In this document: in pieces, positions 151 to 21,217 of the stretch
How the letters are laid out: each line of letters begins with the position of its first letter
How positions within the stretch are numbered: the stretch's first letter is position 1
Virus record (IMG/VR): IMGVR_UViG_3300042475_001758
Span: 1 to 24,931 of that record
Reading direction: 5' to 3' (one strand)
Source: a virus
Lineage: Duplodnaviria; Caudoviricetes
DNA length: 24,931 bases
Program-made: the position numbers and the translations under genes
The notes under the pieces: model-generated
Databases searched by the model: none
Seen by the model: the letters and a program-made list of their open reading frames with translations, nothing else
What the model was told of the DNA's origin: nothing

Positions 151-1506
151 ATGTCTATTATTAAATTACACCGTGCTCAATCGGAAGTTATACATCATCT
201 TTTTAAACCAGTTCAACCAAAGACAGAAGACTGGAAGATGAGGTTTGCAGTAGTTGTGGGTTCTCGCGGCTTAGGTAAATCTTACGTTTCAGCGAGTGCA
301 GTAACTCTTGCTGTTGGTGAGCTTGAAACTCTTGCAGAGTCAGTCCCTAACAAAAACATTGCTCTTCTTTGCGGTAGTCATACGCAGGTAACAGATATCT
401 ACTGGCCAATGTTAGCTTATCAATTTGGACTTGAGAGTCGTTGCTGGAAACATTCACGTTCTTTAGGTAAGTTTGTGTTCGCAAATGGAACCGAAATTCG
501 TTGTTGGTCCGCTGATGCTTACGAACGACTGCGCGGTTCAGGACAGTACTTAGTAGTAGCTGACGAATTACCATCTTGGAAAGTCCCCGGTGGTTCTATT
601 AAGGATGCTTGGGAGTCTGTTATTGAGCCTTGCGTTGTTACTCGTTGGAGTCCAAAGCAGGCTGCAGCAGTAGGAGCGGTAAGTCCGGGTCGGGCACTGC
701 TACCCTCGACGCCTCTTGGGAAAGATTATTTTTATGATCTTGCACAACGCGAACATATTGATGACCGTTGGAAAACATTTTCTTACTCTTATAAAGACTC
801 ACCTCTCTTATCACAAGAGGAGATTGAGAGAGCAAAGAAACACTCAGACCCACTAAAGTTTGCTCGTGAATATGAGGCGAGTTTTGAAGAGTCTGGTTTG
901 ACATTGTTTCATACATTTTCTCGTAAACTCCATGTTGATCCTAATCTTCCCTACTTTGAAGAAGATGAGACAGTTCATTGCGCTATCGACTTTAACATCA
1001 TGTTAAACTGTACTAGTTTCCATGCTGTTAGAGGTGGTCAAGTTCATACTCTTGATGAATCAAAAGGCACGGCTAACACTGAGGAGCTTGCCCGTCTTAT
1101 CCGTTCCAAATTCCCTAAAAATAAGATTGTCTGTTATCCAGACCCTGCTGGGAAGGCCCGTAAGACTTCCGCCGCGGTAGGCGTAACTGACTTCAGCATA
1201 CTCCGCGAGGCGGGATTTACCGTTTTGGCGAAAGACAAGGCCCCTGCAATAGTTGATAGTGTTGCTGCTGTTAATCGTAAACTCCTTAATGCTAGTGGTG
1301 ATGTTGACATGCTGATTCATCCTCGTTGTACAGGAGTTATTGGCTCTTTCGAGAGAACTAGCTGGCTTGAGAACAGACCAGAGACAGCTACAATTGACAA
1401 GACTCAAGGTGTAGAACACTACACTGATGGTATCCGTTATTTTGTAGATTATCTCTGGCCGTTAACTCAATCTAAACCTGTTATTTTTACAGGTTCTAGT
1501 TTCTAA
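151..1506 (+). CDS. terL: Terminase large subunit
   Basis: Walker A GSRGLGKS, Walker B LVVADE, STPLG motif, RNase H-like nuclease acidic motifs IDFN and DGIRY; ATG at 151 has AAGGA SD (preferred over TTG at 76). Confidence 0.93.
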   Translation: MSIIKLHRAQSEVIHHLFKPVQPKTEDWKMRFAVVVGSRGLGKSYVSASAVTLAVGELETLAESVPNKNIALLCGSHTQVTDIYWPMLAYQFGLESRCWKHSRSLGKFVFANGTEIRCWSADAYERLRGSGQYLVVADELPSWKVPGGSIKDAWESVIEPCVVTRWSPKQAAAVGAVSPGRALLPSTPLGKDYFYDLAQREHIDDRWKTFSYSYKDSPLLSQEEIERAKKHSDPLKFAREYEASFEESGLTLFHTFSRKLHVDPNLPYFEEDETVHCAIDFNIMLNCTSFHAVRGGQVHTLDESKGTANTEELARLIRSKFPKNKIVCYPDPAGKARKTSAAVGVTDFSILREAGFTVLAKDKAPAIVDSVAAVNRKLLNASGDVDMLIHPRCTGVIGSFERTSWLENRPETATIDKTQGVEHYTDGIRYFVDYLWPLTQSKPVIFTGSSF

Positions 1507-1937
1507 CACAAGTAGTTTACTTGCGGATGGTCTTTTGACAAGATTGACCAGTAGCTTGACCATTGATCTTTTGCTTCTTGGATCAAATCATCTACTGGTT
1601 TTCCTAACACCATACGTAACTGCCAAACAGGGTGATACAATGCTTCTACAGCATCTGGCACTTCTTTTTGACAAAGTTTTTGAACTAAACTCCAGTTAGG
1701 ATGATAACCAGTATGAATATAAGAAGACCACCAAATCTTTGGATTAGAGATTTCTCCTTTGACCCAAGCCTTATGTTTTAATGGATCATTTAGAAAGTCT
1801 CGTTCGCTAGTACCTACATATACATATAAACGATCTTCTTCTACATAAGGCAGCTGCTCAGGGTATTTAGCTTCCATAGTCAACAGCTTAATCTTTACTG
1901 TTGGTTTGAAAGAAGGTAGAGCTGGATGATTAGTCAT
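1503..1937 (-). CDS. Hypothetical protein (144 aa)
   Basis: Last ORF of the minus-strand block; stop overlaps terL stop convergently; GGAG SD. Confidence 0.75.
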   Translation of the reverse strand: MTNHPALPSFKPTVKIKLLTMEAKYPEQLPYVEEDRLYVYVGTSERDFLNDPLKHKAWVKGEISNPKIWWSSYIHTGYHPNWSLVQKLCQKEVPDAVEALYHPVWQLRMVLGKPVDDLIQEAKDQWSSYWSILSKDHPQVNYLC

Positions 1938-1945
1938 TTGATAAA

Positions 1946-2158
1946 CTAAACTCCTAGTACTTGACGGATTTCTTTTGATCGATGTTCTTTTCCTAAGTTA
2001 TACATATCACGCATATTTTTTACAACTACTCTAGCAGCTTCGATAGGAATAGACTCTGTTTTAAAGTAGTAAATTTTAGCATGTTTAGTTCCTTCTGCTC
2101 TAGGGTCTGGGTTTTCGATGTAAACTTCACCTGCATGATAGTCAAAAATAACAGTCAT
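1946..2158 (-). CDS. Hypothetical protein (70 aa)
   Basis: AGGAG SD upstream; fits gene tiling. Confidence 0.75.
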   Translation of the reverse strand: MTVIFDYHAGEVYIENPDPRAEGTKHAKIYYFKTESIPIEAARVVVKNMRDMYNLGKEHRSKEIRQVLGV

Positions 2159-2192
2159 AGTGACTCCTGTTTGAAGAAAAAAGGAAAGTAGT

Positions 2193-2217
2193 AAAAAAGG
2201 AGGCCCGAAGGCCCCCT
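2193..2217 (-). terminator. Rho-independent terminator
   Basis: Minus strand AGGGGGCC-TTCG-GGCCTCC followed by TTTTTT, right after the stop of 2221-2403; cUUCGg tetraloop. Confidence 0.85.
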
Positions 2218-2220
2218 AAG

Positions 2221-2403
2221 TTAGATATGTTTGAACACTAGTTCTTTTTGTTTAGTTGTAACATCAAGCATACTACAAAGCTTTGCTGCTTTACGTTGAT
2301 AAGTAGTCCACTCAATATTCCAAAGCAGATCTTCTTTGTTGTTTATCTGACGTTCAAGTTTGATCATTTTACGAAGATAGTAACCTAGCTCATGCTTGTT
2401 CAT
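2221..2403 (-). CDS. Hypothetical protein (60 aa)
   Basis: ATGA start/stop overlap with upstream gene. Confidence 0.7.
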   Translation of the reverse strand: MNKHELGYYLRKMIKLERQINNKEDLLWNIEWTTYQRKAAKLCSMLDVTTKQKELVFKHI

Positions 2404-2582
2404 GTTGCTCTCTTTTCATTCCAAACCTCATAAAGACGGTTGTCTACGCTAGCTTGATAGTAAGCTAAGGTGTCCTGTTCAACAATAAGTATATCGTTCG
2501 GTAAGTGTTTTTGACTAGCTATTTTACGTAGGCAACGTACTTGGTCTCCTACTTTTACTGTCGGATGCTTAACGTAGTTCAT
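2400..2582 (-). CDS. Hypothetical protein (60 aa)
   Basis: ATGA overlaps at both ends; AAGGA SD. Confidence 0.7.
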   Translation of the reverse strand: MNYVKHPTVKVGDQVRCLRKIASQKHLPNDILIVEQDTLAYYQASVDNRLYEVWNEKRAT

Positions 2583-2755
2583 CGGTGATCCTTTGACTTT
2601 GGTTTAGCTCTTTTATGTTTCATAGTTTGATAGCCAGAGGCTGCACGAGTATGCTTGCGACCTTTTCTAAGTTCTCCACCACCACAACAACGACAGTGAG
2701 GTCGAACACCAAGACGCACGTCTGCGTTAGCTTTTTCGTGGTTTCCTGTATCCAT
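2579..2755 (-). CDS. Small basic Cys-containing hypothetical protein (58 aa)
   Basis: Not in track. MDTGNHEKANADVRLGVRPHCRCCGGGELRKGRKHTRAASGYQTMKHKRAKPKSKDHR; TAATG coupling upstream, ATGA coupling downstream. Confidence 0.7.
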   Translation of the reverse strand: MDTGNHEKANADVRLGVRPHCRCCGGGELRKGRKHTRAASGYQTMKHKRAKPKSKDHR

Positions 2756-3057
2756 TACCAGTCCTTTATAGCTCTGTGTACCTTGTAAGGTAACACTCGT
2801 CTAGCATAACAACGATACCAATCTTTTAATGCTTCTTCTTTTGTGAAGTGATTATTTAAGAAAGAACATTCCATTCCTACGAGTAGATAAGAAGGTCCAT
2901 AAAGCACACGACGATTTAAGTATACTCTTCCATCATCTCTGACTTCAAAGTAATGATTAGTAAGGCTTTCATACGCTTCAGCTAAAGTATTGCCTCTGCC
3001 GATAACTTTATCTTTATACTCGATAAGGTAGTACGTCGAAGGAAGTGTACCAGCCAT
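2755..3057 (-). CDS. Hypothetical protein (100 aa)
   Basis: Start moved to ATG 3057 (MAGTLP..., AAGGA SD); the TTG at 3108 lies within the tRNA-like gene. Confidence 0.75.
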   Translation of the reverse strand: MAGTLPSTYYLIEYKDKVIGRGNTLAEAYESLTNHYFEVRDDGRVYLNRRVLYGPSYLLVGMECSFLNNHFTKEEALKDWYRCYARRVLPYKVHRAIKDW

Positions 3058-3076
3058 GTTTAGTTCCTTTTTGAAT

Positions 3077-3168
3077 TGGTAGAAGTGCTGAGTTTCGATC
3101 TCAGTCAAGAACAGTCATCTACTGCTAAAGGGATTATAAGGCCCTCCCGCGTCCCAACGCCCACTTCC
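3077..3168 (-). tRNA. Non-canonical tRNA-like gene, anticodon UAU (putative tRNA-Ile2(UAU)), long variable arm
   Basis: GGAAGTG/CACTTCT acceptor + A + CCA; D arm GCGT-TGGG-ACGC; anticodon loop CT-TAT-AA; V arm AGCAGT/ACTGTT; T arm CTGAG-ATCGAAA-CTCAG; 8 nt downstream of tRNA-Leu. Confidence 0.75.
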
Positions 3169-3176
3169 ACAGTTAT

Positions 3177-3253
3177 TGGTAGGGGTAGTCGGATTCGAAC
3201 CGACACTACACAGATTTTAAGTCTGTTGTCTCTACCTGTTGGACTATACCCCC
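3177..3253 (-). tRNA. tRNA-Leu(UAA), short variable loop
   Basis: GGGGGTA/TACCCCT acceptor + ACCA; anticodon arm ACAGA-CTTAAAA-TCTGT; T arm GTCGG-TTCGAAT-CCGAC; 77 nt. Confidence 0.93.
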
Positions 3254-3261
3254 ATTTTGAT

Positions 3262-3429
3262 TTAAGAAGGATAAAGTTTTCTAAACAACTTTATGAAATC
3301 CTCTAGATCGTCTTCATCTTTTAAACTGTAGTATTCATCTGGTAAAATCCTACCTACAGCAAGCAGATAATTATCTAATAGTTCTACAAACTCTAGCTCT
3401 TTCTTTGTTAGCTTAAGATTAGTATTCAT
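3262..3429 (-). CDS. Hypothetical protein between tRNAs (55 aa)
   Basis: ATG 3429 (MNTNLK...) with AAGGAG upstream; the track's longer start lies inside tRNA-Arg. Confidence 0.65.
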   Translation of the reverse strand: MNTNLKLTKKELEFVELLDNYLLAVGRILPDEYYSLKDEDDLEDFIKLFRKLYPS

Positions 3430-3450
3430 AGCTACTGATGCTCCTTTATT

Positions 3451-3526
3451 TGGCGACCCCGGCAGGACTCGAACCTGCAACTTACTGCTTAGAAGGCAGT
3501 TGTTCCATCCATTGAACTACGGGGCC
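3451..3526 (-). tRNA. tRNA-Arg(UCU)
   Basis: GGCCCCG/CGGGGTC acceptor + GCCA; anticodon arm ACTGC-CTTCTAA-GCAGT; T arm GCAGG-TTCGAGT-CCTGC; 76 nt. Confidence 0.95.
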
Positions 3527-3885
3527 ATATAGAATTGAGCGTACGTATGAACTGCATGACAATTAGCACATAGTACTCTACATTTCCGAATCTCGGATTT
3601 CACTCGAAGAATGTTATACGTTTGCATTCTTGAGAGTGCTCTTTCTTTTTCTTTAGGGTCTAGATGATCTAATTGAAGGGCAGCAAAATGCTCTTTGTAA
3701 CCACAGATCTCACAACCTTTTCGAAGCTTATAACGTTTGACAAGCGTAGTAATATACTGACGCCTTTTCTTTTGTTGTTTATTAGCACAATCTTTACATT
3801 GTGACATTAAGCCTAAGCTTCTTTTCTTTTGTTTATAAAATTGATTGAGATCTTTAGTCTCGTTACAAGTAGTGCATTCCTTCAA
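3517..3885 (-). CDS. HNH endonuclease with N-terminal Cys4 Zn-ribbon
   Basis: CTTC...CKDC then CEICG...LDHLDP...CRVLCANCHAVH (HNH signature); TTG start with AAGGA SD. Confidence 0.85.
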   Translation of the reverse strand: MKECTTCNETKDLNQFYKQKKRSLGLMSQCKDCANKQQKKRRQYITTLVKRYKLRKGCEICGYKEHFAALQLDHLDPKEKERALSRMQTYNILRVKSEIRKCRVLCANCHAVHTYAQFYMAP

Positions 3886-3912
3886 TTATTTATTTTCCTT
3901 TCTTGAAAGAGT

Positions 3913-3938
3913 AGAAGGCCAGCCGTAACCAGCCTTCT
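3913..3938 (-). other. UACG-tetraloop hairpin
   Basis: AGAAGGCTGGT-TACG-GCTGGCCTTCT (11 bp including G-U pairs), directly downstream of the repeated motif. Confidence 0.6.
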
Positions 3939-3958
3939 GCTTTATCGCTAAGAGGTCA
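3935..3958 (-). promoter_or_regulatory. Repeated motif copy 1, candidate phage-specific promoter
   Basis: TGACCTCTTAGCGATAAAGCAGAA; 22/24 identical to 7048-7071 on the opposite strand; begins at the upstream stop codon and runs into the gap upstream of the HNH/tRNA cluster. Confidence 0.55.
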
Positions 3959-4138
3959 ACTCATTTCCTCGATGATTTTGTCAATGCGTTGATGCAACTG
4001 TTCAACAGTATTTACAATTTCTTTAGTAGAAGTCCAGTCGTCCTCAGCGTCTTTACCAGAGTAGTTGAGAACGAAACCGTTACTAACGATTTCTACATCG
4101 AAAGTTTCTACACCTTTTGTTACTTGTTTTTTAGCCAT
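3956..4138 (-). CDS. Hypothetical protein (60 aa)
   Basis: GGAGG SD; tiles with neighbours. Confidence 0.8.
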   Translation of the reverse strand: MAKKQVTKGVETFDVEIVSNGFVLNYSGKDAEDDWTSTKEIVNTVEQLHQRIDKIIEEMS

Positions 4139-4139
4139 G

Positions 4140-4469
4140 TTAAGCCTCCAGCTGATCTAGAGCAAACCACCAGAGCTTTAGCCGAGTGTTTGCATGTTGT
4201 TTTTTAGTTGCCCACTTAGTAGACTTGAAGCCAATGTCTTTCAAGAAGGCATTAGCTTTTACTTGTTTATCATTAGTAAAGGCTGTAACCATAGCCTTAC
4301 CCTCATGTTTAAACTTCAACATTTCGTTAAGCAAAGCTTCTTTAGTTTCTGTTATATTCATACCTGGGTAGTTGTAATCAGCTCCTTGTGCAGGAACTCC
4401 ATCACCATCAAATCGAAAGCTAGACAGCATTACAGCAGTGCAGCACGAAGGTACGTTATCTACTTTCAT
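4140..4469 (-). CDS. Hypothetical protein (109 aa)
   Basis: TAATG coupling with upstream gene; AGGAG SD. Confidence 0.8.
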   Translation of the reverse strand: MKVDNVPSCCTAVMLSSFRFDGDGVPAQGADYNYPGMNITETKEALLNEMLKFKHEGKAMVTAFTNDKQVKANAFLKDIGFKSTKWATKKQHANTRLKLWWFALDQLEA

Positions 4470-5065
4470 TACAGTTCTCCTACGACAAGACGTTTAGCAT
4501 TTTTAGCCGACATTTCAGGGCAGTTGTCTTGCTTAGTGTCTAGTTCAACTACAGACCAGATAGAGCCTGCCCAAAGAACAATGTCGTTCTTTCCAAGCTT
4601 ATCTTTCTCTACTGTTGCATGACGAGGATTACCAGCCCCTGTAACATTCACTAGTTTAACAGTGTAAGGCTTGACTTCTTCAAGAAGGTCTTTCTTGAAA
4701 GCCTTGATAGCATTGTTAGCGTCTCCGCGGATTTCAAGTACTAGCTCACCAGCAGTGTTAGTGCCGATATGGATACCATAGACTTCTTCGCCGATTACTT
4801 TGAAAAGCTTAGACATTGTGTTGTTTCCTTCTTGTTCGTTTACGTTGCCATCATACTTGTAGTAGTCATTTAGATCACGATCGTTATAAAGACTAACTGG
4901 ATAACTACTAGCTGTTTTATAGCTCATGCCTTTCCAGTAGTCCATAGGCTCAAGTACAATATAATCGAGTCGATCATTCCTAGTGTAAATCTTTACTACT
5001 TTTTTAGGAACCTTAGCACGTTTAGGTAGTAGAACGTCTCCAACTTTTAACTCTAATAGCTTCAT
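4469..5065 (-). CDS. Hypothetical protein (198 aa)
   Basis: GGAG SD; possible internal in-frame start MSKLFK with GAAGGA upstream. Confidence 0.8.
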   Translation of the reverse strand: MKLLELKVGDVLLPKRAKVPKKVVKIYTRNDRLDYIVLEPMDYWKGMSYKTASSYPVSLYNDRDLNDYYKYDGNVNEQEGNNTMSKLFKVIGEEVYGIHIGTNTAGELVLEIRGDANNAIKAFKKDLLEEVKPYTVKLVNVTGAGNPRHATVEKDKLGKNDIVLWAGSIWSVVELDTKQDNCPEMSAKNAKRLVVGEL

Positions 5066-5068
5066 AAT

Positions 5069-5230
5069 TTACTCCACAAGAGTGTTAACTGCTTCTTTAC
5101 CAAGTACGATAAAGAAGGGGTTTTTACTAGGCGTAGGAGCTTCTGAGTAGTCTAGAAACTCCTGGTGATCCCAGTCATCTTCATTCCAAGCTTTATGCTC
5201 CTTGATTAGGTTAAATTCTGCTTTATTCAT
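5069..5230 (-). CDS. Hypothetical protein (53 aa)
   Basis: Start moved to ATG 5230 (MNKAEF), overlapping the stop of the hydrolase gene by 8 nt. Confidence 0.55.
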   Translation of the reverse strand: MNKAEFNLIKEHKAWNEDDWDHQEFLDYSEAPTPSKNPFFIVLGKEAVNTLVE

Positions 5231-5579
5231 AGAACGTGTGCTCGCCATAGCGACCGATCCTTTTTCTGGTTTTGAAGAAGCCTTTACGAGGCCCACTGTG
5301 AAAAAACAAAGCCTTTGTACCGGGTAACTCAACGTAGTTCCAGTACACTTCTCCTGCCATAGTAATCGAGTCTAAGAAGACATCTTCAGTGATAGGTAAG
5401 TCTTTGTTAGACCAAGAGAATTGTTTAGGTTGATAAACTACCTCGCAAATAGTTGCTGGGAAGTCTTCGTGGTTGACTCTGTTCATAATTACTTCAGCTA
5501 CAAGTAGTTGAGCTTCAATAGTTTCTGAACGAGCTTCGTGGTAGAGAGCTAGGGCTAAGCATAAAATACTTTCTAGCAT
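5223..5579 (-). CDS. SleB-like cell wall hydrolase (Hydrolase_2 family)
   Basis: CLALALYHEARSE...VIMNRV...FPATICEVVYQPKQFSW...HTFY motifs; AAGGAGGT SD. Confidence 0.88.
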   Translation of the reverse strand: MLESILCLALALYHEARSETIEAQLLVAEVIMNRVNHEDFPATICEVVYQPKQFSWSNKDLPITEDVFLDSITMAGEVYWNYVELPGTKALFFHSGPRKGFFKTRKRIGRYGEHTFYE

Positions 5580-5593
5580 ACTACCTCCTTTTG

Positions 5594-5800
5594 TTAGAAG
5601 GGAATCAGTAGAGACTCCACATACTCCATGTGATTTTGACTCATTTCAACTAAGTCTTCATCAGTTAACTCCTTCCAAGTTAAGTTATCGAGAGAGCGTT
5701 CGATGTGTTTCCAGTCTCTACATCGATAGTACCAAACTGTTCCGTCAAACTCTGTATAGAAGTCTAACGGGTGATAAGTGCAGTCTTCACACATAGTCAA
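5594..5800 (-). CDS. Hypothetical protein (68 aa)
   Basis: ORF tiling; start uncertain (TTG 5800 or ATG 5794). Confidence 0.65.
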   Translation of the reverse strand: MTMCEDCTYHPLDFYTEFDGTVWYYRCRDWKHIERSLDNLTWKELTDEDLVEMSQNHMEYVESLLIPF

Positions 5801-6203
5801 TAGCTACTCCTGCTTCACGAAGCAAGTTACGAGCTTCTAAGAAGTTACCATACCAAGAGCTTTCCTTTTCAATTTCAGGAACCACAACTCTCTTAATTCC
5901 TCTCTGTATTGCTAAACCTGCACAAGTGCAACACAAGAAGCTAGTACAGTACAAAGTAGCTCCGTAGCAGTCACTAGAACGCAAAAGAGCATGAGACTCT
6001 GCATGTATTACGATTAGGTTCTTATACTCTCTGTTTGCCCAACGTTCATCGGTGTTAGCGATACCTCTGGGAAACTGATTAAACCCTCTAGTGAGAACTC
6101 TACCGTTTCTTTCAACTACACAACCTACTTTCTTGTTAGGGTCTAGTGACCAAGAAGCCTGTTCTTTTGCCAGGCCAAAGTAGAACCGATCTTCATCATT
6201 CAT
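5787..6203 (-). CDS. dCMP deaminase-like Zn-dependent deaminase
   Basis: S.DP..KVGCV, GFNQFPRG, HAE, LYCTSFLCCTCA, IQRGIKRVV motifs typical of dCMP deaminase/ComEB. Confidence 0.87.
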   Translation of the reverse strand: MNDEDRFYFGLAKEQASWSLDPNKKVGCVVERNGRVLTRGFNQFPRGIANTDERWANREYKNLIVIHAESHALLRSSDCYGATLYCTSFLCCTCAGLAIQRGIKRVVVPEIEKESSWYGNFLEARNLLREAGVAIDYV

Positions 6204-6376
6204 TCTAGTTCCTCTGTACAGTCACAGTCATAAACATACTCAGACCAGATAGAGTCATAGCCGATGTCCATCTTAGCTTTCCATTCTCCTAGTGAAGTAG
6301 GATCAAGTAGAACAGCTAATCCAAACATAAACAAAATAGCTTTGTAGACTTGGTTGATATACTCATTCAGTCTCAT
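6200..6376 (-). CDS. Small membrane-anchored hypothetical protein (58 aa)
   Basis: Not in track. MRLNEYINQVYKAILFMFGLAVLLDPTSLGEWKAKMDIGYDSIWSEYVYDCDCTEELE; ATGA overlaps at both ends; AGGAG SD. Confidence 0.72.
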   Translation of the reverse strand: MRLNEYINQVYKAILFMFGLAVLLDPTSLGEWKAKMDIGYDSIWSEYVYDCDCTEELE

Positions 6377-6792
6377 TTGGTTTCTCCTAGTTCGGCCAGC
6401 GTGTCATTCAGCATCTTGCTAAGTGGGTCCGATGGGTGTGCAACTTTATCGAACATGTCTCGACAAAGCGTTAGAAGCTCCACCGCCTTATTCAGTTTGT
6501 CCACGGCAGACACCCACTCTTCTTCGAAAAATTCACGCTCGGCGGTCAGGGCTTCGATGCTGGTATCAGGGGTGCGTGTGTTCCATGAAGCGATAGCTTC
6601 GTCTTTTGTTTTCTCCCACACATGGGGCTCCACACGACACTGAGAATTTGAACATCCAACTTCCCACGCTGTAGAGTGGCCGTAGTCTTCAAAGGAGAAG
6701 GGTTCTCCACCACAGAACGGGCAGGGCTTTAGATCGTCACTCATCTCGGCCTCTAAGATTTTTGCAAATTCGATGAGTTCTTCGTCAGTCAT
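6373..6792 (-). CDS. Lar-like (restriction alleviation) Zn-finger domain protein
   Basis: LKPCPFCGG...VGCSNSQC...EAIASWNTR is the Lar-family pattern; ATG 6792 overlaps upstream stop (ATGA). Confidence 0.75.
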   Translation of the reverse strand: MTDEELIEFAKILEAEMSDDLKPCPFCGGEPFSFEDYGHSTAWEVGCSNSQCRVEPHVWEKTKDEAIASWNTRTPDTSIEALTAEREFFEEEWVSAVDKLNKAVELLTLCRDMFDKVAHPSDPLSKMLNDTLAELGETK

Positions 6793-6959
6793 TTCACGCA
6801 ACTCCCCCAAATCCATTGCTTATCGGCGGCGATACACTGCTCGTAGCGGATTTGGCTTTTATCCATGTTGTACATCATGAGCTGCCCAAGCCCAAAAAGC
6901 AGAAATACGACAGCCGCAATTCCTGCGAATGGGACGATGTTATACCTAGAGTCTCTCAT
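6789..6959 (-). CDS. Small membrane protein (56 aa)
   Basis: MRDSRYNIVPFAGIAAVVFLLFGLGQ... one TM segment; ATG 6959 with AAGGAG SD and ATGA overlap. Confidence 0.72.
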   Translation of the reverse strand: MRDSRYNIVPFAGIAAVVFLLFGLGQLMMYNMDKSQIRYEQCIAADKQWIWGSCVK

Positions 6960-7021
6960 TTTGTTCTCCTTGCAGGGCAATCTCTGCCTTGGTTGCAGTT
7001 ATTGTTACAGGGTGGACACAT
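6956..7021 (-). CDS. 21-aa Cys-rich micropeptide
   Basis: Not in track. MCPPCNNNCNQGRDCPARRTK; AAGGAG SD; stop coupled to next start. Confidence 0.65.
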   Translation of the reverse strand: MCPPCNNNCNQGRDCPARRTK

Positions 7022-7047
7022 AGTTTTCTCCTTAGTTTGTTGAACTC

Positions 7048-7071
7048 TCACCTCTTAGCGATAAAGAAGAA
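7048..7071 (+). promoter_or_regulatory. Repeated motif copy 2, flanked by a 9-bp inverted repeat
   Basis: TCACCTCTTAGCGATAAAGAAGAA; GAACTCTCA (7042-7050)/TGAGAGTTC (7072-7080) arms enclose the core. Confidence 0.55.
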
Positions 7072-7179
7072 TGAGAGTTCTTTGGGGGTGTCAGTAGGCT
7101 TAGTTAGAAGATTCTAACATAATCCTCTTCTGTCTGTGTTAAACAGGGGGAGGGGGGTTGTAGTAGGATAGTTAGAAGA

Positions 7180-7422
7180 TTAAGATAAACTATACTCTTC
7201 TTCTTTCTTAGCTTTATACTCACTTAGAATATGATAAGCCTTTAGTTCTGTTTCTACTACACAGTATTCTAGTTGATACTCTCTAGTAGACATACTTGAA
7301 AGGTCTTCTAGTACTCCTTCCCAGTAGCCTTGTTCTTTACCAAAGCCAAAGAAAGGTCGTCCTAGACTAATCCATACTTGAGGAACATAGCCTTTTGATA
7401 CTTTTACTACTCTGGTTTTCAT
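7180..7422 (-). CDS. Hypothetical protein (80 aa)
   Basis: Start moved to ATG 7422 (MKTRVV; ATGA overlap, AAGGA SD). Confidence 0.72.
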   Translation of the reverse strand: MKTRVVKVSKGYVPQVWISLGRPFFGFGKEQGYWEGVLEDLSSMSTREYQLEYCVVETELKAYHILSEYKAKKEEEYSLS

Positions 7423-7610
7423 TGTTGCATCCTTTTGTTGTAGTCTACATAGTCTTCTAACCAACGATAATTTTTAGTAAAGACTTGTCCAGTAGCTTGA
7501 CTACGTACTTCTACTCCTCCTCGTCCTTTAAATCTAAGTACTACAGCAGGAAAACCTGTATCAAGGTTAACTACTAGTTGACCATGACGAAATGGACCTT
7601 TTCTCTTCAT
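7419..7610 (-). CDS. Hypothetical protein (63 aa)
   Basis: ATGA overlap, GGAGG SD. Confidence 0.72.
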   Translation of the reverse strand: MKRKGPFRHGQLVVNLDTGFPAVVLRFKGRGGVEVRSQATGQVFTKNYRWLEDYVDYNKRMQQ

Positions 7611-7861
7611 ACTAGTGCCTCCAGACGGTTATAAACAGGCATAGGTACATCTTGTTGTACTTTACGCTCCCAGCGGTCTTTTGCTAGACTACGCACATTG
7701 TCTCCTACCTCGTAGTCGTAGACATAGTCGTTGTCAAACCAGGTTACCTTTACTTTATCTACAGTAATACGAGCCCACTTGTTACGAGTCTTATGCTTGT
7801 ACCAACCTTGATCACAGTAGAAATGACGGTTGTTACGGTTTGTTACAACAATATCGCTCAT
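7607..7861 (-). CDS. Hypothetical protein (84 aa)
   Basis: ATGA overlap, AAGGA SD. Confidence 0.75.
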   Translation of the reverse strand: MSDIVVTNRNNRHFYCDQGWYKHKTRNKWARITVDKVKVTWFDNDYVYDYEVGDNVRSLAKDRWERKVQQDVPMPVYNRLEALV

Positions 7862-8160
7862 AGACCTAGTTCCTTCTTTAGTTTTTCATATTGGTTAAGT
7901 TTGTAATTTAACTGACTCTGCTCCGCTTTCTTCTTGCGTAGAGCACACTCTTCTGCTGTTTCCAGTCGATAAAAGACCCAGTTATGATTACAAGCTCTTT
8001 CATCATAAGGGTCGTCAAAGTCTAAACTATAGTAAACACCATCACAACCTTCAGTCTTCTTTGCTTCTACGTCGATACGAGAACAGTAGAGACTTAACTC
8101 ACTAGCTGACATAGACTCAGGAGTAAAGCTTACTCGTTTAAGTTCGATTTTACTCGACAT
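7858..8160 (-). CDS. Hypothetical protein (100 aa)
   Basis: Likely start ATG 8160 (MSSKIE), overlapping the deaminase stop. Confidence 0.7.
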   Translation of the reverse strand: MSSKIELKRVSFTPESMSASELSLYCSRIDVEAKKTEGCDGVYYSLDFDDPYDERACNHNWVFYRLETAEECALRKKKAEQSQLNYKLNQYEKLKKELGL

Positions 8161-8530
8161 TCCATCCATCCTTTGTTGTGTAGTAAACAGTAGGTATAAA
8201 AAAGGCTTCAATCGCCTTCTGACAACCTACACAGGGTTTAGAGTTACTCAACGAACCATCCTTACAAACTCTTGCTACGTACAGTGTAGAGTGCTTTAAA
8301 ACAGTTGTACCATAGCGACGTATAGCACGAGTTATACAGTCGATTTCAGCATGCAACTCTACTGCTTCAGGATGCTTACAATACCGTTTCATCATTGGAT
8401 GAGTTTTGTATTGGTTAACTCCTGTTGCTAACAATCGGCCTTTATAGTACAACGCAGCTGCATGCTTCGATCGATAGACAGGTGGTGTTGCTATTGCTAG
8501 CGCTACAGTCTTTATTTTTTCTTTTCCCAC
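8150..8530 (-). CDS. Second cytidine/dCMP-deaminase-superfamily protein
   Basis: HAEIDCI and SKPCVGC Zn-binding motifs; KHAAAL..KGRLLATGVN N-terminus; LYVAR. Confidence 0.82.
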   Translation of the reverse strand: MGKEKIKTVALAIATPPVYRSKHAAALYYKGRLLATGVNQYKTHPMMKRYCKHPEAVELHAEIDCITRAIRRYGTTVLKHSTLYVARVCKDGSLSNSKPCVGCQKAIEAFFIPTVYYTTKDGWNVE

Positions 8531-8820
8531 AATCGACCTGCTTCAAAAGCTTCTTTAAAGGTTTGACGAACACTATAGTCTTGTTCTGCAGGTTGTCCCT
8601 GCCACTCGTCAAAGGCTTTCTCCCAGTCTGCTTTACAGTTACGTAGTTTCATATTCGGACCAGAATAGTAGTCTCCGTCTTCCTTTTTAGTGAAAGACCA
8701 GATGACTCCATTCCACCATTCTACTATAACACGGTTGTTAGACGCTGTACCAATTAGCGTTACACGAGTGTCATTAATACTATCTCCAAAAGCTTCTAGT
8801 GGTTTTTTCAAGTCGATCAT
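8512..8820 (-). CDS. Hypothetical protein (102 aa), paralog of 8817-9110
   Basis: ATGA overlap; shares motifs with neighbour. Confidence 0.75.
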   Translation of the reverse strand: MIDLKKPLEAFGDSINDTRVTLIGTASNNRVIVEWWNGVIWSFTKKEDGDYYSGPNMKLRNCKADWEKAFDEWQGQPAEQDYSVRQTFKEAFEAGRLWEKKK

Positions 8821-9110
8821 TTCTTAGCTCCTGCTTCATAGCCTTTTCTAAAGATAGTCTCTTCTGTGTAGTCAAAGTTAGGAGCTTTATTCAGGTAGTA
8901 TCGGTCAAAAGCTACTTCCCAAGGCTCTTTGACGTTGCGAATACAACCTACTCCGTTGATATGCCCTGTTGTTGCATCTGCACGATAGATAAGACTAGCA
9001 AAAGAGGATTCTACAATTGCTTGTCTACCATTAAGACTCCAACCTACAAAGTGCAGTTTTACAGAGGGGTCGGTGACTAGCTCAATAGGACGGTGCCAGT
9101 TAATCGGCAT
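8817..9110 (-). CDS. Hypothetical protein (97 aa), paralog of 8512-8820
   Basis: GAAGGA SD; shares motifs with neighbour. Confidence 0.75.
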   Translation of the reverse strand: MPINWHRPIELVTDPSVKLHFVGWSLNGRQAIVESSFASLIYRADATTGHINGVGCIRNVKEPWEVAFDRYYLNKAPNFDYTEETIFRKGYEAGAKK

Positions 9111-9324
9111 AGTAAGTTCCTTCTGGTAAGCCGAGAGCTGTTAGAGCTTCTCGAAGCTGTTGGTTTGACATTTCTACTACTTCATATCGTTCATACTCTT
9201 CATTCCATTGTCGTACAAAGACACCGTCTTCATCGAGAATCCACTCGATGTCTTCTAGCTGACCTTCATCGTCTAGGACAGTTACTACAGAGGCTTTGAA
9301 TACGTGTTCTACTGTAAAGGTCAT
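9100..9324 (-). CDS. Acidic hypothetical protein (74 aa)
   Basis: ATGA overlap with upstream ORF. Confidence 0.78.
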   Translation of the reverse strand: MTFTVEHVFKASVVTVLDDEGQLEDIEWILDEDGVFVRQWNEEYERYEVVEMSNQQLREALTALGLPEGTYYAD

Positions 9325-9458
9325 TTACGTACCGTTCCATACCAGTATAGACCTTCTTTATATACTAAGCCTACTGTTGACCAGCCTAGAGACTGTAGTC
9401 GAGCTAACTCTGCGAGTAACTTAGACTCAGAGAAAGCTCGTAGTGTTTGTTGGATCAT
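9321..9458 (-). CDS. Hypothetical protein (45 aa)
   Basis: Not in track. MIQQTLRAFSESKLLAELARLQSLGWSTVGLVYKEGLYWYGTVRK; GAGGT SD; ATGA coupling. Confidence 0.68.
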   Translation of the reverse strand: MIQQTLRAFSESKLLAELARLQSLGWSTVGLVYKEGLYWYGTVRK

Positions 9459-9502
9459 TTTGACCTCAGTTAGCCATGATAAAAAAAGTTAAGTGTAGTA
9501 GA

Positions 9503-9520
9503 AGCCCCCCGAAGGGGGCT
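9503..9520 (-). terminator. cUUCGg hairpin, possible weak terminator
   Basis: AGCCCCC-TTCG-GGGGGCT; the T7 run is displaced ~15 nt downstream. Confidence 0.55.
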
Positions 9521-9704
9521 AATACGCCAAGCAGCAGCCTACTACTATACTACCCCCTAGCGCAATTAAAAAACCAGAGGGTAGTAAAAATAAGAAGAAT
9601 AGGAAACCACCTATGATACCATTAGTAGTTCCTAACTTAAGACCTACTCTTCCGTGAATGATTACCCAGAAGATACTGAACAGCAGGATAGAGCTTGCTA
9701 ACAT
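9519..9704 (-). CDS. Hydrophobic hypothetical membrane protein (~61 aa)
   Basis: MLASSILLF...; weak SD, overlaps 9637-9789 by 68 nt. Confidence 0.45.
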   Translation of the reverse strand: MLASSILLFSIFWVIIHGRVGLKLGTTNGIIGGFLFFLFLLPSGFLIALGGSIVVGCCLAY

Positions 9705-9789
9705 TTTTCTTGTATCCAAAGAAGAGAAATTGAAGAGTCAGCCTAGTTCCTAACCATGAAGTTAGAATAACTAGAAAAGCTTCTGTCAT
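9637..9789 (-). CDS. Small hydrophobic protein (50 aa)
   Basis: Not in track. MTEAFLVILTSWLGTRLTLQFLFFGYKK...; GAGGAGG SD; ATGA overlap. Confidence 0.6.
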   Translation of the reverse strand: MTEAFLVILTSWLGTRLTLQFLFFGYKKNVSKLYPAVQYLLGNHSRKSRS

Positions 9790-9872
9790 CTTTCCTCCTC
9801 TTCTTTATACATTAGATACAAAATAAAAGCAGAAGCCGCAAGCATAAACAAGATTTCAAGTGCGGTAAGCAT
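9786..9872 (-). CDS. 28-aa single-TM micropeptide
   Basis: Not in track. MLTALEILFMLAASAFILYLMYKEEEER; AGGAG SD. Confidence 0.65.
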   Translation of the reverse strand: MLTALEILFMLAASAFILYLMYKEEEER

Positions 9873-9935
9873 TTAGTTTTTCTCCTGTAAAGGCAAGAAA
9901 CACCCGATTAAGAAAATAGTAAAAAGTACTAGCAT
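9873..9935 (-). CDS. 20-aa hydrophobic micropeptide
   Basis: Not in track. MLVLFTIFLIGCFLPLQEKN; AAGGAG SD; stop abuts next ATG. Confidence 0.55.
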   Translation of the reverse strand: MLVLFTIFLIGCFLPLQEKN

Positions 9936-9946
9936 AGTTTTTCTCC

Positions 9947-10213
9947 TTACACAAGGGTTGGGGCAGTGAAGCCTGGATAGTAAACAGCAACTCGTTTAGC
10001 TGCTTTCTTCAGCAACTCATTTACCGAAGCTACTTCTTGAACACTCATTGTAGGCCTTTCATCGTAGTAACGAAGTACCTCATAAAAGTAATCAAGTTGG
10101 TATTTTTTAACTTCTTCACGAAGTTTGTTAAACTTGTAAACTCGTTCATACCATTCATGAGCAGCTACTACGATACCGATTACAACAAGAGTTACAAAGG
10201 TTGCAGTCCACAT
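9947..10213 (-). CDS. N-terminally membrane-anchored hypothetical protein (88 aa)
   Basis: AAGGAG SD; hydrophobic N-terminus. Confidence 0.78.
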   Translation of the reverse strand: MWTATFVTLVVIGIVVAAHEWYERVYKFNKLREEVKKYQLDYFYEVLRYYDERPTMSVQEVASVNELLKKAAKRVAVYYPGFTAPTLV

Positions 10214-10237
10214 TTCAATCTCCTTTTAAGGGTTAAG

Positions 10238-10354
10238 TAAGCAGTTTCTCACTTGCTTAGGTGATGTCGTGGTTATACTCAATAGCTCCTTATCCACACT
10301 ATTGAGAACTCCGCATGCTCCCGGAGTAACGAGCTAGCCTCTGTAGTTGCTAGC
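10238..10354 (-). ncRNA. Structured leader RNA, copy A (tandem pseudoknots)
   Basis: 35 bp identical to 11540-11574; remainder keeps stems through compensatory changes with conserved loops. Confidence 0.75.
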
Positions 10355-10410
10355 GAACGCAGTTTCATTTGTTTTGTGGTATATTTATACACCCCCACTA
10401 GGGTGTTTCC

Positions 10411-10632
10411 TTAATAAGAACGTCTACCTGAAAAAGGCTTTAAACCAGCTGCTACATCATATAGCATCTGGTAAGCTACGTCAGTTGACGCGTAGTAGCA
10501 CTCAGGCCAGCAAAAGCCAGCCTGAATTTTTCTGTTACAGACAAACTGTCCAAACCTTAGAGTTGACCGAAGACTTGAATCGCTAGACCAAGTGTTCCAG
10601 AGCGTTCTAAGCTCTTCAGTTGTGAGTTCCAT
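10411..10632 (-). CDS. Hypothetical protein (73 aa)
   Basis: GGGAG SD; LRFGQFVCN segment. Confidence 0.72.
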   Translation of the reverse strand: MELTTEELRTLWNTWSSDSSLRSTLRFGQFVCNRKIQAGFCWPECYYASTDVAYQMLYDVAAGLKPFSGRRSY

Positions 10633-10781
10633 TTCTTTTTGACTCCCTTTATTCTAAACACAATAACAAGATCAGCTTCTCTCAGCCGATGCTTCCAACC
10701 GTGTTCAGTTACAAGTAGCTCATAGGTGACCCAAGAAACTTCAAGAAGTTTACCTGAGTCCAGTTGTGCGTAGTATCTCAT
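10557..10781 (-). CDS. Hypothetical protein (74 aa)
   Basis: Starts 2 nt after upstream stop; 3' end overlaps next gene by 76 nt. Confidence 0.6.
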   Translation of the reverse strand: MRYYAQLDSGKLLEVSWVTYELLVTEHGWKHRLREADLVIVFRIKGVKKKWNSQLKSLERSGTLGLAIQVFGQL

Positions 10782-10783
10782 TC

Positions 10784-10954
10784 TTAGCTCAACAATTTTA
10801 TGGGCTCAGGAGTATAATCTTTTTCAATAGCAGCAACACAAAGACGACCGTAGTTGCTTAACTCTTCTTTTGAAAGAGTTTTGAGTTCATCGTGTCGAAC
10901 TACTTTACCCGTGCTAGCGTGAACGACTTTAGCTTCAGAGTTGATCGCGAACAT
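10784..10954 (-). CDS. Hypothetical protein (56 aa)
   Basis: Start moved to ATG 10954 (MFAINS; CAGGAG SD); the track's extension covers a pseudoknot motif. Confidence 0.72.
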   Translation of the reverse strand: MFAINSEAKVVHASTGKVVRHDELKTLSKEELSNYGRLCVAAIEKDYTPEPIKLLS

Positions 10955-10981
10955 TTTGTTCTCCTGTGAGGGGTTGATGTT

Positions 10982-11009
10982 GAGCAGTTTAAAGACTTGC
11001 TTAGGTCTT
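10982..11009 (-). ncRNA. Single H-type pseudoknot motif
   Basis: AAGAC-CTA-AGCA-A-GTCTT-TAAAC-TGCT; stem 1 covaries relative to the other copies. Confidence 0.65.
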
Positions 11010-11013
11010 AGCC

Positions 11014-11268
11014 TCAAGAAATACGGTTTAGCTCTTCTTCAGCCAACCATAGCTCTTCTCTTGCACTTTGAACGGCTTCTTGCAAAGCATCGTCTTCAGG
11101 GGCAGATTCGAGTGTGTCTTCACTAAGAAAATAAGCAGCTTGCTCGGCGAGCAGCAACTTTGTCTTAGCATGAGCAACACTCTCTTCGTACCATTTCTTT
11201 TCAAAGTATCCGCAAGCTTGATTAAGCTCGGCATCTACGGAAAAGAGGTTACGAATGAACTTCAGCAT
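11014..11268 (-). CDS. Hypothetical protein (84 aa)
   Basis: AGGAGG SD. Confidence 0.78.
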   Translation of the reverse strand: MLKFIRNLFSVDAELNQACGYFEKKWYEESVAHAKTKLLLAEQAAYFLSEDTLESAPEDDALQEAVQSAREELWLAEEELNRIS

Positions 11269-11293
11269 GGGGTCCTCCTGATTGCTGAGTGGG

Positions 11294-11318
11294 TGAGCAG
11301 TTAGTCGCTTGCTCAGGC
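11294..11318 (-). ncRNA. Single H-type pseudoknot motif (weak stem 1)
   Basis: GC-C-TGAGCA-A-GC-GACTAAC-TGCTCA; stem 2 covaries (TAAGCA/TGCTTA to TGAGCA/TGCTCA). Confidence 0.55.
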
Positions 11319-11325
11319 CAAGACG

Positions 11326-11514
11326 TTAAAGCGTCATTACGAGGTGATATACTGCAGCACCATCGAGGGTTGCTGTCACATCTTCATGCAGCTGAAGAGC
11401 TTCTTTCAAAGCTTCTTCTTTGTTAGCCGACATGAAGTAGTCACTCGTCATAAAACCGTTTTCACCATCGTCGGTAGTGAAAGCCAGTTTGACTAGGTAC
11501 GGCATCGCTCTCAT
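11326..11514 (-). CDS. Hypothetical protein (62 aa), first gene of minus-strand block
   Basis: AAGGAGG SD. Confidence 0.78.
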   Translation of the reverse strand: MRAMPYLVKLAFTTDDGENGFMTSDYFMSANKEEALKEALQLHEDVTATLDGAAVYHLVMTL

Positions 11515-11539
11515 TAGAGCCTCCTTGGTTCAGGGTTGA

Positions 11540-11657
11540 TAAGCAGTTTCTCACTTGCTTAGGTGATGTCGTGGCTATATCCTACAGTTCCTTATCCACA
11601 CTGTAGAAACCCGTCCTGCTCCTCGGGTAAGCGAGCCAGCCCCTAGAAAGCTCTGGC
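11540..11657 (-). ncRNA. Structured leader RNA, copy B (tandem pseudoknots)
   Basis: See copy A; stem TTCTACAGT/ACTGTAGGA replaces CTCAATAGT/GCTATTGAG around the identical loop GTGGATAAGGA. Confidence 0.75.
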
Positions 11658-11753
11658 ATGGATTCTCATTAGACTTGATTTAGTCTTTTGATTATTCATC
11701 ATTATAGATACGTACTTTTCCTCACTTTTTAAACACAATTTTTAGGAATACAA

Positions 11754-12452
11754 ATGACCAAAACAAGAACTCGTGTCCGTTCGAATCAAGCTCGTCCCTT
11801 AGTAGATAAGGCAGTTCACATTCAACCTAAAACTCAGACTCAAGATCGATTGTTAAGAGCAGTAGAGAGCAGTCAGTTAGTTGTTACTATAGGACCTGCT
11901 GGTGTCGGTAAGACTTACTGTGCAGTAAATGCAGCTGTAAACTTACTTGTACAAGGACGTGTAAAGAAACTTGTTTTAGTTCGTGCTAATATTCCTACAG
12001 GAAAAACCCTTGGTTCTTTTCCCGGAGACATTTATGATAAGCTTGGGCCTTGGTTGGCTCCAATGACTAGTGAGATTAAGAAAAGACTTGGTGCTAATGA
12101 CTACGACGCTAAACGTCACTCAGGACAGATTGAGTTTCATCCTCTAGAAACTATTCGTGGTGCTAGTTTCGAAGATACAATTATTCTTGTTGATGAGTCT
12201 CAGAATTTAACTTATGAAGAAGTGAAAGCAATTACTACACGTATCGGTGAAGGCTCTAAGATGATTCTCATGGGTGATCCGATGCAGCGTGATACACGTG
12301 ACTCAGGACTTGTGGAATTTAAGAAGATTATTAATAAATATAATTTAGAAGTACCTGTGATTGAGTTCACAGTTGAAGATATTGTTCGTTCAGATCTTGT
12401 TGCGTCTCTTGTAAAAGCTTATCTTTTTCATGAAAAACACACAACTCTCTGA
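11754..12452 (+). CDS. phoH: PhoH-family ATPase
   Basis: GPAGVGKT Walker A, LGSFPGD, IRGASF, VDESQN, TTRIGEGSK, GDPMQRD, DIVRS motifs. Confidence 0.93.
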   Translation: MTKTRTRVRSNQARPLVDKAVHIQPKTQTQDRLLRAVESSQLVVTIGPAGVGKTYCAVNAAVNLLVQGRVKKLVLVRANIPTGKTLGSFPGDIYDKLGPWLAPMTSEIKKRLGANDYDAKRHSGQIEFHPLETIRGASFEDTIILVDESQNLTYEEVKAITTRIGEGSKMILMGDPMQRDTRDSGLVEFKKIINKYNLEVPVIEFTVEDIVRSDLVASLVKAYLFHEKHTTL

Positions 12453-20560: not shown

Positions 20561-21217
20561 ATGAAGATGGCAATTCAAGTTGGAGGTACTACTGTAATCG
20601 GAAACAGTCGTAGCCTCGAAAATATCGCATCAGTAGATTCTGCTACTACTACAGTTCTAACTACTGCTATGACAGGTAAGCAGACTGCTGATGCTACACT
20701 AACAGCACTTGCAGGTTTAGACACTACAGCAGGTTTAGTTGCACAAACAGGAACAGATACCTTTACTAAGCGTACACTTGCTGCAGGTACAGGAGTTACT
20801 GTTACAAATGGCAATGGATCAGCAGGAAATCCCACTGTATCTTTAGGTGTAACTACCCTTGGCGTTTCTGAAGCTAGTAAAGCAGTTACTGCTGCGGCTG
20901 ATGGAACCGTAACCTTTTCAAGTGCTATTAAAGAAACCGTATTTACTCTTGCAGGTACAGCTCTAGATCCTAATAATGGAACTATCCAACTTATAACTCT
21001 TACTGCTAGTCGCACACTGACTGACTCTATTCTTGCAGGTGAAAGTATGACAGTAATGATTGACGATGGTACTAACTTTACAATAACTTGGCCTACTATG
21101 ACATGGGTTAACAACGGTAGAGTTGCGCCTACTCTCGCAACCACTGGCTATACTGTAGTAGCACTCTGGAAAGTTAGTACAACACTTTATGGTGCATTAG
21201 TAGGGAATGGTACATAA
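20561..21217 (+). CDS. Tail fibre-associated protein (218 aa)
   Basis: AAGGAG SD; Thr/Ala-rich; [14 protein letters not shown] and TITWP..TW motifs of fibre proteins. Confidence 0.75.

Follow-up and report, generated by a model that had tools for sequence, protein, structure and literature searches.

A duplicated phage RNA element in which a three-hairpin domain of one lineage is combined with a 27-nt pseudoknot that is widespread

REP hairpins and terminator stems stabilise bacterial messages from intercistronic or 3' positions, where they hinder ribonucleases beside gene ends, and decoy small RNAs of the CsrB/RsmZ type carry several short hairpins with GGA loops. In phages, the put RNA of HK022 occurs as two related structured copies in early transcripts, one of them promoter-proximal, and is ~70 nucleotides (nt) long with two stem-loops that bind the beta-prime zinc domain (excerpts of PMC9378689). 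The PeSL modules, each a promoter plus a terminator stem-loop, recur in intergenic positions between stop codon and Shine-Dalgarno sequence (SD), and the variable orphan-gene block that holds them undergoes cassette shuffling (excerpts of PMC2839356). The gene 32 knot of T4/T2 is a compact two-stem H-type pseudoknot, which lies in an intergenic region upstream of an A/U-rich stretch and the ribosome-binding site (excerpts of PMC3014915). The uncharacterised STAXI motif (RF01728) has been described as tandem pseudoknots; in Enterobacteriales it consists of two or three repeats of a single knot, in many cases with UUCG loops (excerpts of PMC2864571). Theta ribozymes, which are minimal and resemble the hepatitis delta virus (HDV) ribozyme, are small knotted phage RNAs beside tRNAs (excerpts of PMC10879173). 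Here we compare with these systems an RNA element of ~117 nt, which is encoded twice (copies A and B) on the minus strand of a linear virus record (IMG/VR IMGVR_UViG_3300042475_001758, Caudoviricetes; 24,931 bases, estimated completeness ~36%). The whole of this stretch is called the window.

Our data support a real, uncatalogued compound phage RNA. The first ~90 nt of the element form a domain of hairpins (P0, P1 and P2) and the last 27 nt a pseudoknot (PK3); comparison of the available sequences supports three hairpins and a single knot. The three-hairpin domain, known from four sequences, is new at this locus and was found only in its lineage, and PK3 is solid and widespread. We favour the reading that the element is a cassette for a small non-coding RNA, in which PK3 would protect the 3' end of the RNA against 3'-to-5' ribonucleases. 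We assign this reading, the functional steps of which are inferred, a probability of about 0.45.

The 5' domain was found in five IMG/VR contigs, one of which is identical to the window, and these give four distinct sequences from a single phage clade, namely A and B from the window, C from the contigs L234, L235 and L239, and D from L233. Among these four, both sides are changed in three of the six pairs of P0, compensatory changes are found in two of the six pairs of P1, and P2 has compensatory changes in three of nine pairs with 97% of cells paired. With eight compensatory pairs over three stems, the covariation score exceeds those of 500 out of 500 shuffles and of all slid controls, in a test that the kinship of the sequences inflates. 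The sequences GGAGCA, GUGGAUAAGGA and CCACGACA are invariant across A-D while the stems vary. A conserved upstream open reading frame (ORF) running through the element was considered and rejected, since the frame of 29 codons in A has no start and an extra base in C.

The initial annotation had described the locus as one duplicated leader of three tandem pseudoknots with covariation between the copies. Both copies lie on the minus strand where it had placed them, and all the helices it named are present as written. Alignments of 68 nt at 88% and of 126 nt at 81% (E 6e-25) place the duplication far above chance, and the SD seen 3' of each copy is found as AGGAG/AAGGAGG 13 nt after the copy end, with an ATG 24-25 nt downstream. 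Copy B begins ~40 nt past a perfect TATAAT. The minus strand fits the direction of the genes and gives slightly better folding energies than its complement (-33.9 vs -30.2 and -32.7 vs -28.6 kcal/mol). The nested folding energy is not unusual, with z-scores of -1.54 and -0.15 for copies A and B and of -1.81 and -0.35 for the other two sequences. As for the architecture, the third knot does covary, but knots 1 and 2 do not, and the third is an independent module; the proposed covariation thus holds for the hairpins P0, P1 and P2 and for PK3, and fails for the pairings of PK1 and PK2.

PK1 and PK2 may still be two further knots, and as sequence comparison goes they are possible. PK1 would pair GAGC of the P1 loop with an upstream GCUC; three of its pairs are invariant, one is broken in variant C, and none is compensatory. 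The base of variant C that is common to P0 and PK1 changes together with its P0 partner, so that P0 is kept and the first pair of PK1 is broken. PK2 would pair the P2 loop with the linker that follows P2; all four of its pairs (GUGG/CCAC) are invariant, again without covariation. A 4-bp partner is offered by 12-13% of random flanks for the PK1 loop and by 25-27% for the PK2 loop. The linker CCACGACA has an alternative pairing that would close a three-way junction via UCG(U)/(A)CGA after P0. This junction, present in the minimum free energy (MFE) structures of A and C, also lacks covariation in its pairing, and as a modelled alternative to PK2 it is equally unproven. A further contact appears in the MFE structures of B and D, where the 3' strand of PK3 is paired with GAGCAG from the P1 loop.

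PK3 itself consists of a 4-bp stem 1, a C, a 6-bp stem 2, an A and a 5-nt A-rich loop, and its core is almost invariant. A structure scan of the window under strict rules returned the PK3 of the two copies as the sole H-type knots on the minus strand. Its core pattern was found at 122 IMG/VR loci, with an estimated total of 290, and the variable gap measures 5 in 113 of 123 matches; when the outer stem-2 positions are freed, ~3,500 IMG/VR stretches match. All four unconstrained pairs are formed in 101 of 127 distinct rows, whereas the rows average 15 and never exceed 29 in 1000 shuffles, and each stem has several pair types. In GTDB genomes, both free stem-1 pairs are formed in 109 of 113 distinct matches. 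PK3-like sequences occur, mostly outside annotated genes, in cultured phages of cyanobacteria, Staphylococcus, Lactobacillus, Bacillus, Clostridium, Moraxella, Arthrobacter and roseobacters, and the genomic context was examined for eight such matches. The range covers phages of Actinobacteria, Firmicutes, Cyanobacteria and Proteobacteria as well as gut crAss-like phages, and cultured carriers include SIO1, ICBM1, Amigo and Page. Because thousands of unrelated phage stretches carry the covarying knot, PK3 is, as judged from its sequences, an independent, pan-phage module. Within the window, two stand-alone copies (11324-11294 and 11008-10981) add to the copies described in the initial annotation. 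The former, a variant, recurs in L233, L234 and L237, and the latter has a stem 1 (AGAC/GUCU) unlike that of copies A and B and a counterpart in L233 with a fully paired stem 2.

Several other loci with PK3 deserve mention in their own right. Many of the GTDB matches (L528-L607) lie in Saccharibacteria/Patescibacteria assemblies, in varied gene contexts. On the minus strand of L073, downstream of a transfer-messenger RNA (tmRNA) at 711-1007, three tandem 38-nt repeats each contain the PK3 core, and a fourth, single copy lies nearer the tmRNA. Lineage-specific structured stretches are found directly 5' of PK3 in four groups of loci (L445 and L478; L452, L466, L473 and L475; L467 and L501; L012, L025, L026 and L422). 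Several of them stand just past a TATAAT, and the four that were scanned have no Rfam match; such stretches are candidates for further capped small RNAs or leaders. At L344, L346, L350, L371, L372, L389 and L390, a short GC hairpin with the upstream stop codon in its loop stands directly 5' of PK3. In Staphylococcus StB12 (L243) and Lactobacillus Lj965 (L244), PK3 lies between the minor-head and scaffold genes, and a hairpin with a U-run separates it from the scaffold start.

The position of PK3 relative to genes is tied to the upstream side. PK3 starts 4-9 nt past a stop codon in 103 of 180 distinct copies, with a mode of 5-6, whereas the next ATG follows at widely scattered distances (2-98 nt, 101/180). 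In the first PK3 set, 48 of 92 copies began 4-8 nt past a stop, compared with 10 of 92 on the opposite strand. The stops preceding PK3 are TAA in 86 of the 103 cases, TAG in 14 and TGA in three, and an open in-frame link to the next ATG exists in 3 of 55. We found no common function among the flanking genes, as judged from 46 downstream and 55 upstream ORFs of 64 distinct PK3 loci (among L393-L472). Under a strict test, a terminator-like site lies within 150 nt downstream in 5 of 181 PK3 loci. A count of flanking-ORF orientation (same strand upstream in 134/170, downstream in 108/170) was too crude and was not used.

The main reason for reading PK3 as a 3' cap is its placement before tRNAs. 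A tRNA on the same strand begins 3-11 nt past the end of PK3 in 16 of 180 copies; none of the copies has PK3 within 20 nt after a tRNA, the nearest upstream tRNA ending at least 21 nt before PK3. Fourteen of these 16 copies also start 4-9 nt past a stop codon, although two of the ORFs concerned lie in tRNA arrays and are probably spurious. In the annotated phage Amigo, the order is SSB gene, PK3, tRNA-Gly. RNase P cuts at the 5' end of tRNAs. Since this cut falls just past PK3, the knot would be left at the 3' end of the upstream message, and the pre-tRNA placement points more to capping of the upstream RNA than to shielding of a downstream gene. The tight spacing to the upstream stop and the loose spacing to the downstream ATG likewise favour a 3' cap. 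The initial annotation had proposed a role in RNA decay; this can be retained for the third knot, and it is the 5' roadblock part of the proposal that the tRNA context disfavours.

For the 5' domain, the data argue for a cargo. A-D precede four different ORFs. In L233, L234 and L237 nothing occupies the slot of copy A, and the two genes flanking it abut. The order in L234 is gene, PK3, domain, PK3, a U run (13 U), gene, PK3, gene, PK3; because the domain is bracketed with PK3 as the neighbouring genes are, it occupies a gene-like slot. The domain is absent from L236, L237 and L257 and from the 73.8-kb relative G002, which is rated 100% complete and keeps one PK3 match. In G002 the promoter motif and the downstream hairpin are both retained in the absence of the element. 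The four different downstream ORFs, the bracketing in L234, the patchy presence and the covarying stems with invariant loops would all fit a cargo carried by the cap.

If this is so, a leftward promoter would yield one long message, host nucleases would cleave it in the A/U-rich spacers, which lack structure, and then degrade it as far as each PK3, and the unit upstream of each PK3 would survive. Here the upstream unit would be the P0-P1-P2 domain instead of a gene, and an RNA of ~115-155 nt would accumulate. A putative host protein would most likely bind to the G/A-rich loops, which are invariant while the stems that carry them are exchangeable, and the RNA would act as a decoy. In its widest form, the proposal would be that PK3 is a universal phage 3' cap dividing early operons into stable units, and that the two paralogous three-hairpin RNAs of this lineage are a trans decoy for a host regulator or defence protein; we consider this extended version doubtful. 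Contigs of one freshwater metatranscriptome span both copies with 1-5 differences at a depth of ~2 and are weak evidence of expression of the element.

A number of observations weigh against a capped small RNA. The metatranscriptome contigs just mentioned carry neither strand nor ends and may include DNA, and the parts of the window they do not cover are uninformative. Eleven of the 16 tRNA cases concern tRNA-Asp, and the seven that were checked share one upstream gene family, so that only about six independent tRNA arrangements plus Amigo are left. In phages of Staphylococcus and Lactobacillus, PK3 precedes scaffold genes, a position in which protection of the downstream message would make more sense, and at several loci it follows promoter-plus-hairpin leaders. 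B and D lie directly behind a promoter, all four copies end 13-26 nt 5' of an SD in the manner of a cis leader, and no terminator was found after A, B or D. A decoy of the Csr type is only a lead, because the counts of GGA are not clearly above those of shuffled sequences: each element has 4-5 GGA triplets with one ANGGA, and 61, 75, 148 and 321 of 1000 shuffles reach the count of the respective copy. Finally, the 5' domain is represented by four sequences of two types.

Several of these points would suit a cis shield, the main rival, in which a chain of knots would stop RNase J or a scanning RNase E that arrives from the 5' side, while the SD stays accessible. Pseudoknots, unlike plain hairpins, have been reported to obstruct the scanning of RNase E to a degree proportional to their coaxial length (excerpts of PMC9943677), which would explain why PK1 and PK2 are retained. 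B and D lie close to the promoter, each copy is followed by an SD, and the GUGG/CCAC pairing is intact in 4/4 sequences. However, neither PK1 nor PK2 covaries and the former is broken in C, and PK2 would have a loop 1 of 0-1 nt and 5 nt spanning an 8-9-bp stem, which is awkward for pseudoknot geometry. Moreover, a tRNA that is removed by RNase P cannot be shielded by a preceding PK3, and the spacing of PK3 is tight to the upstream stop and loose to the downstream start. We regard a cis shield as possible, albeit unlikely. The initial annotation had also suggested an RNA antiterminator similar to put, which would bind RNA polymerase and carry it through the terminators of the 10-kb leftward block. 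Two related copies, one of them just behind a promoter, recall putL and putR (excerpts of PMC9378689), and terminator-like hairpins are present at 9520-9503 and 2217-2198. Yet the complete relative G002 keeps the promoter motif and the downstream hairpin without the element, the slots vary among relatives, Rfam gives no match, and a terminator-like site is near just 5 of 181 PK3 loci. The suggestion is weakened accordingly, and we consider it improbable. An action of PK3 on the terminating ribosome, either as insulation against re-initiation or in readthrough, would account for the mode of 5-6 nt past the stop, which is close to the mRNA entry of a stop-positioned ribosome; the compound copies would then reuse PK3 as a recombination repeat. 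Readthrough was rejected, as most stops are TAA and an in-frame link exists in just 3 of 55 cases, and PK3 is kept in A-D without a nearby stop as well as inside tRNA arrays, so that a ribosomal role is hardly probable either.

Alternatively, the element might be a functionless passenger spread by recombination between PK3 repeats, like the PeSL cassettes of T4-type phages. Its patchy presence, changing slots and unremarkable folding z-scores would be expected of a passenger, but eight compensatory pairs in three stems, invariant loops and a score above 500/500 shuffles (inflated by kinship) would not, and we hold this to be very improbable. Still less can be said for a self-cleaving ribozyme or a precise processing signal, despite the invariant unpaired positions and the frequent position of PK3 beside tRNAs, a slot used by theta ribozymes (excerpts of PMC10879173). 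No Rfam ribozyme matches at E up to 5, and PK3 lies on the 5' side of the tRNAs at a variable spacing of 3-11 nt, with no tRNA 3' end close enough upstream for a theta-type cleavage site, which falls within 5 nt of such an end. The initial annotation could recognise no hammerhead, twister, pistol or HDV core, and we agree with this: the Rfam scan found no hammerhead, hairpin, pistol, twister or hatchet core, core motifs of the first three are absent, and a loose descriptor of the HDV-type fold, a nested double pseudoknot with a catalytic C in J4/2, has no sense match in A-D (0 in 4/4) and matches 21 of 60 background pieces. Word-level likenesses to pistol, hammerhead, purine riboswitches and boxA were judged coincidental after the Rfam scan and a core-motif check. 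The least probable of all is a riboswitch or gene-specific regulator, which had also been suggested. The pairing of GAGCAG in the P1 loop with the 3' strand of PK3 in the MFE structures of B and D could provide such a switch, but the downstream genes differ in all four cases, no function is shared around PK3, the SD lies outside the structure and there is no terminator overlap.

With regard to novelty, Rfam 15 has no family match over 10238-11657 at E up to 5, in line with the possibly undescribed RNA of the initial annotation. There is also no Rfam match over PK3 in 20 + 7 + 20 loci, although the models score pseudoknots poorly and a 27-nt knot could escape them. Searches of IMG/VR with the P2 loop plus CCACG (109 loci), the loop with its closing bases (12) and the linker-PK3 junction (54) led to the same five contigs only. 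For the 5' domain, JGI metagenomes gave one chance match inside a gene and GTDB none, and no new homologs were obtained with the domain covariance model R1 (55 sources and five whole records) or with nhmmer (523 loci). BLAST of 10200-11760 against 50,697 phage records returned short pieces only. Neither module is described in the portions of the literature searched (including PMC5737381, PMC10690425 and PMC5513430); PK3 may be listed among the 10,006 viral candidates aligned in PMC10690425 or in the PMC5737381 supplement, neither of which was compared.

The features of the window are collected in Table 1. Its terminase is 51% identical to that of the Naomviridae phage DSS3_PM1, in which phoH directly adjoins the terminase gene without a 10-kb block between them. 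The promoter-like motif is kept, by eye, in L233, L234, L236, L237 and L257, in relatives down to 82% portal identity, and is absent from the promoter list of a consensus scan of the window; judging from its sequence and position, it would drive leftward transcription. A hairpin similar to that at 9503-9520 is found in L237, and the terminator scan of the window did not call the one at 9503-9520.

Table 1. Coordinates of the element, its parts and neighbouring features in the window
Feature	Position	Strand	Remarks
Copy A, whole element (P0-P1-P2 domain and PK3)	10238..10354	minus	between ORF 10411-10632 and ORF 9947-10213
Copy A, hairpin P0, 6 bp	10333..10354	minus	compensatory changes
Copy A, hairpin P1, loop with invariant GGAGCA	10308..10327	minus	compensatory changes
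Copy A, hairpin P2, 9 bp, invariant 11-nt loop GUGGAUAAGGA	10278..10306	minus	compensatory changes
Copy A, linker CCACGACA	10265..10272	minus	invariant in 4/4 sequences
Copy A, PK3, 27-nt H-type pseudoknot	10238..10264	minus	structure scan and outside homologs
Copy B, whole element	11540..11657	minus	P0 11657-11635, P1 11628-11609, P2 11608-11580, PK3 11566-11540
Stand-alone PK3 variant, short bulged stem 1	11294..11324	minus	just past stop of ORF 11326-11514
Stand-alone PK3	10981..11008	minus	stem 1 begins 5 nt past stop of ORF 11014-11268
Leftward block	1503..11514	minus	~10 kb, small and mostly orphan genes plus two tRNAs, flanked by terminase and phoH
Promoter-like motif	11701..11730	minus	A-tract, GTGAGGAAAA, perfect TATAAT 11706-11701, no canonical -35; heads leftward block
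ORF of 62 amino acids	11326..11514	minus	downstream of copy B; no PHROG match
ORF of 88 amino acids	9947..10213	minus	downstream of copy A; weak match to family of unknown function
GC-rich hairpin, U-run 14 nt later	9503..9520	minus	possible terminator of first leftward unit

Some further observations concern the leftward block and the tail region. The block, in which the hairpin at 2217-2198 is the second terminator-like one, has two genes resembling deoxycytidine monophosphate (dCMP) deaminase (5787-6203 and 8150-8530), which are noteworthy as Naomviridae relatives have deoxyuridine in their DNA. A 22-nt inverted repeat with arms at 3935-3956 and 7050-7071, 95% complementary, 3.1 kb apart and both intergenic, is possibly a regulatory site used in both directions. 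tRNA-Leu(TAA) at 3177-3253 and tRNA-Arg(TCT) at 3451-3526 adjoin an HNH endonuclease gene, and a related contig from the freshwater metatranscriptome fuses the two tRNAs without the intervening 196 nt. In the tail region, an ORF of 316 amino acids (21217-22167) consists of six repeats of ~49 residues each.

A host-independent RNA end cap, should PK3 prove to be one, would add a new rule to phage gene expression and supply a 27-nt part for stabilising bacterial transcripts. If a non-coding unit is capped in the same way, blocks of accessory genes would be a place to look for phage small RNAs.

How the element compares with the described systems can be summarised as follows. Known 3' stabilisers are hairpins, whereas PK3, for which we infer the same role, is a sequence-conserved 27-nt knot, a case that was not found in the literature searched. 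Several short hairpins with GGA loops are shared with CsrB/RsmZ-type RNAs; the element differs in having one ANGGA, no clear enrichment of GGA and no Rfam match. Like put it comes in two related structured copies, but it has another architecture and length and matches put neither in sequence nor by model, and a complete relative does without it. The likeness to STAXI that had been noted, as tandem pseudoknots, did not hold: the element has three differing modules with one supported knot, no repeated knot and no UUCG loop, and the RF01728 model has 0 matches at E up to 10 in G000. The model of GP20-b (RF03003) likewise gave 0/1 matches in the record of the window and 0/5 in PK3-bearing records. 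Theta ribozymes, which cut at the 3' ends of tRNAs, have a nested double pseudoknot (excerpts of PMC10879173), whereas PK3 is a single knot on the 5' side. The PeSL modules resemble PK3 as repeated intergenic modules between stop and SD in a shuffled orphan-gene block; PK3 is, however, a pseudoknot without the sigma-70 promoter boxes of a PeSL, and the window scan called no promoter or terminator inside A, B or the stand-alone PK3 copies. The gene 32 knot resembles PK3 in its compact H-type fold and intergenic position, but it is the operator of one gene, bound by gp32 and placed 67 nt upstream of the start (excerpts of PMC3014915). An SSB-operator arrangement was not found for PK3, as the 46 downstream ORFs have no shared family and in Amigo PK3 follows the SSB gene. 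Unlike the gene 32 knot, PK3 occurs in phages of many phyla beside genes that share no function, and it is tied to the upstream stop codon.

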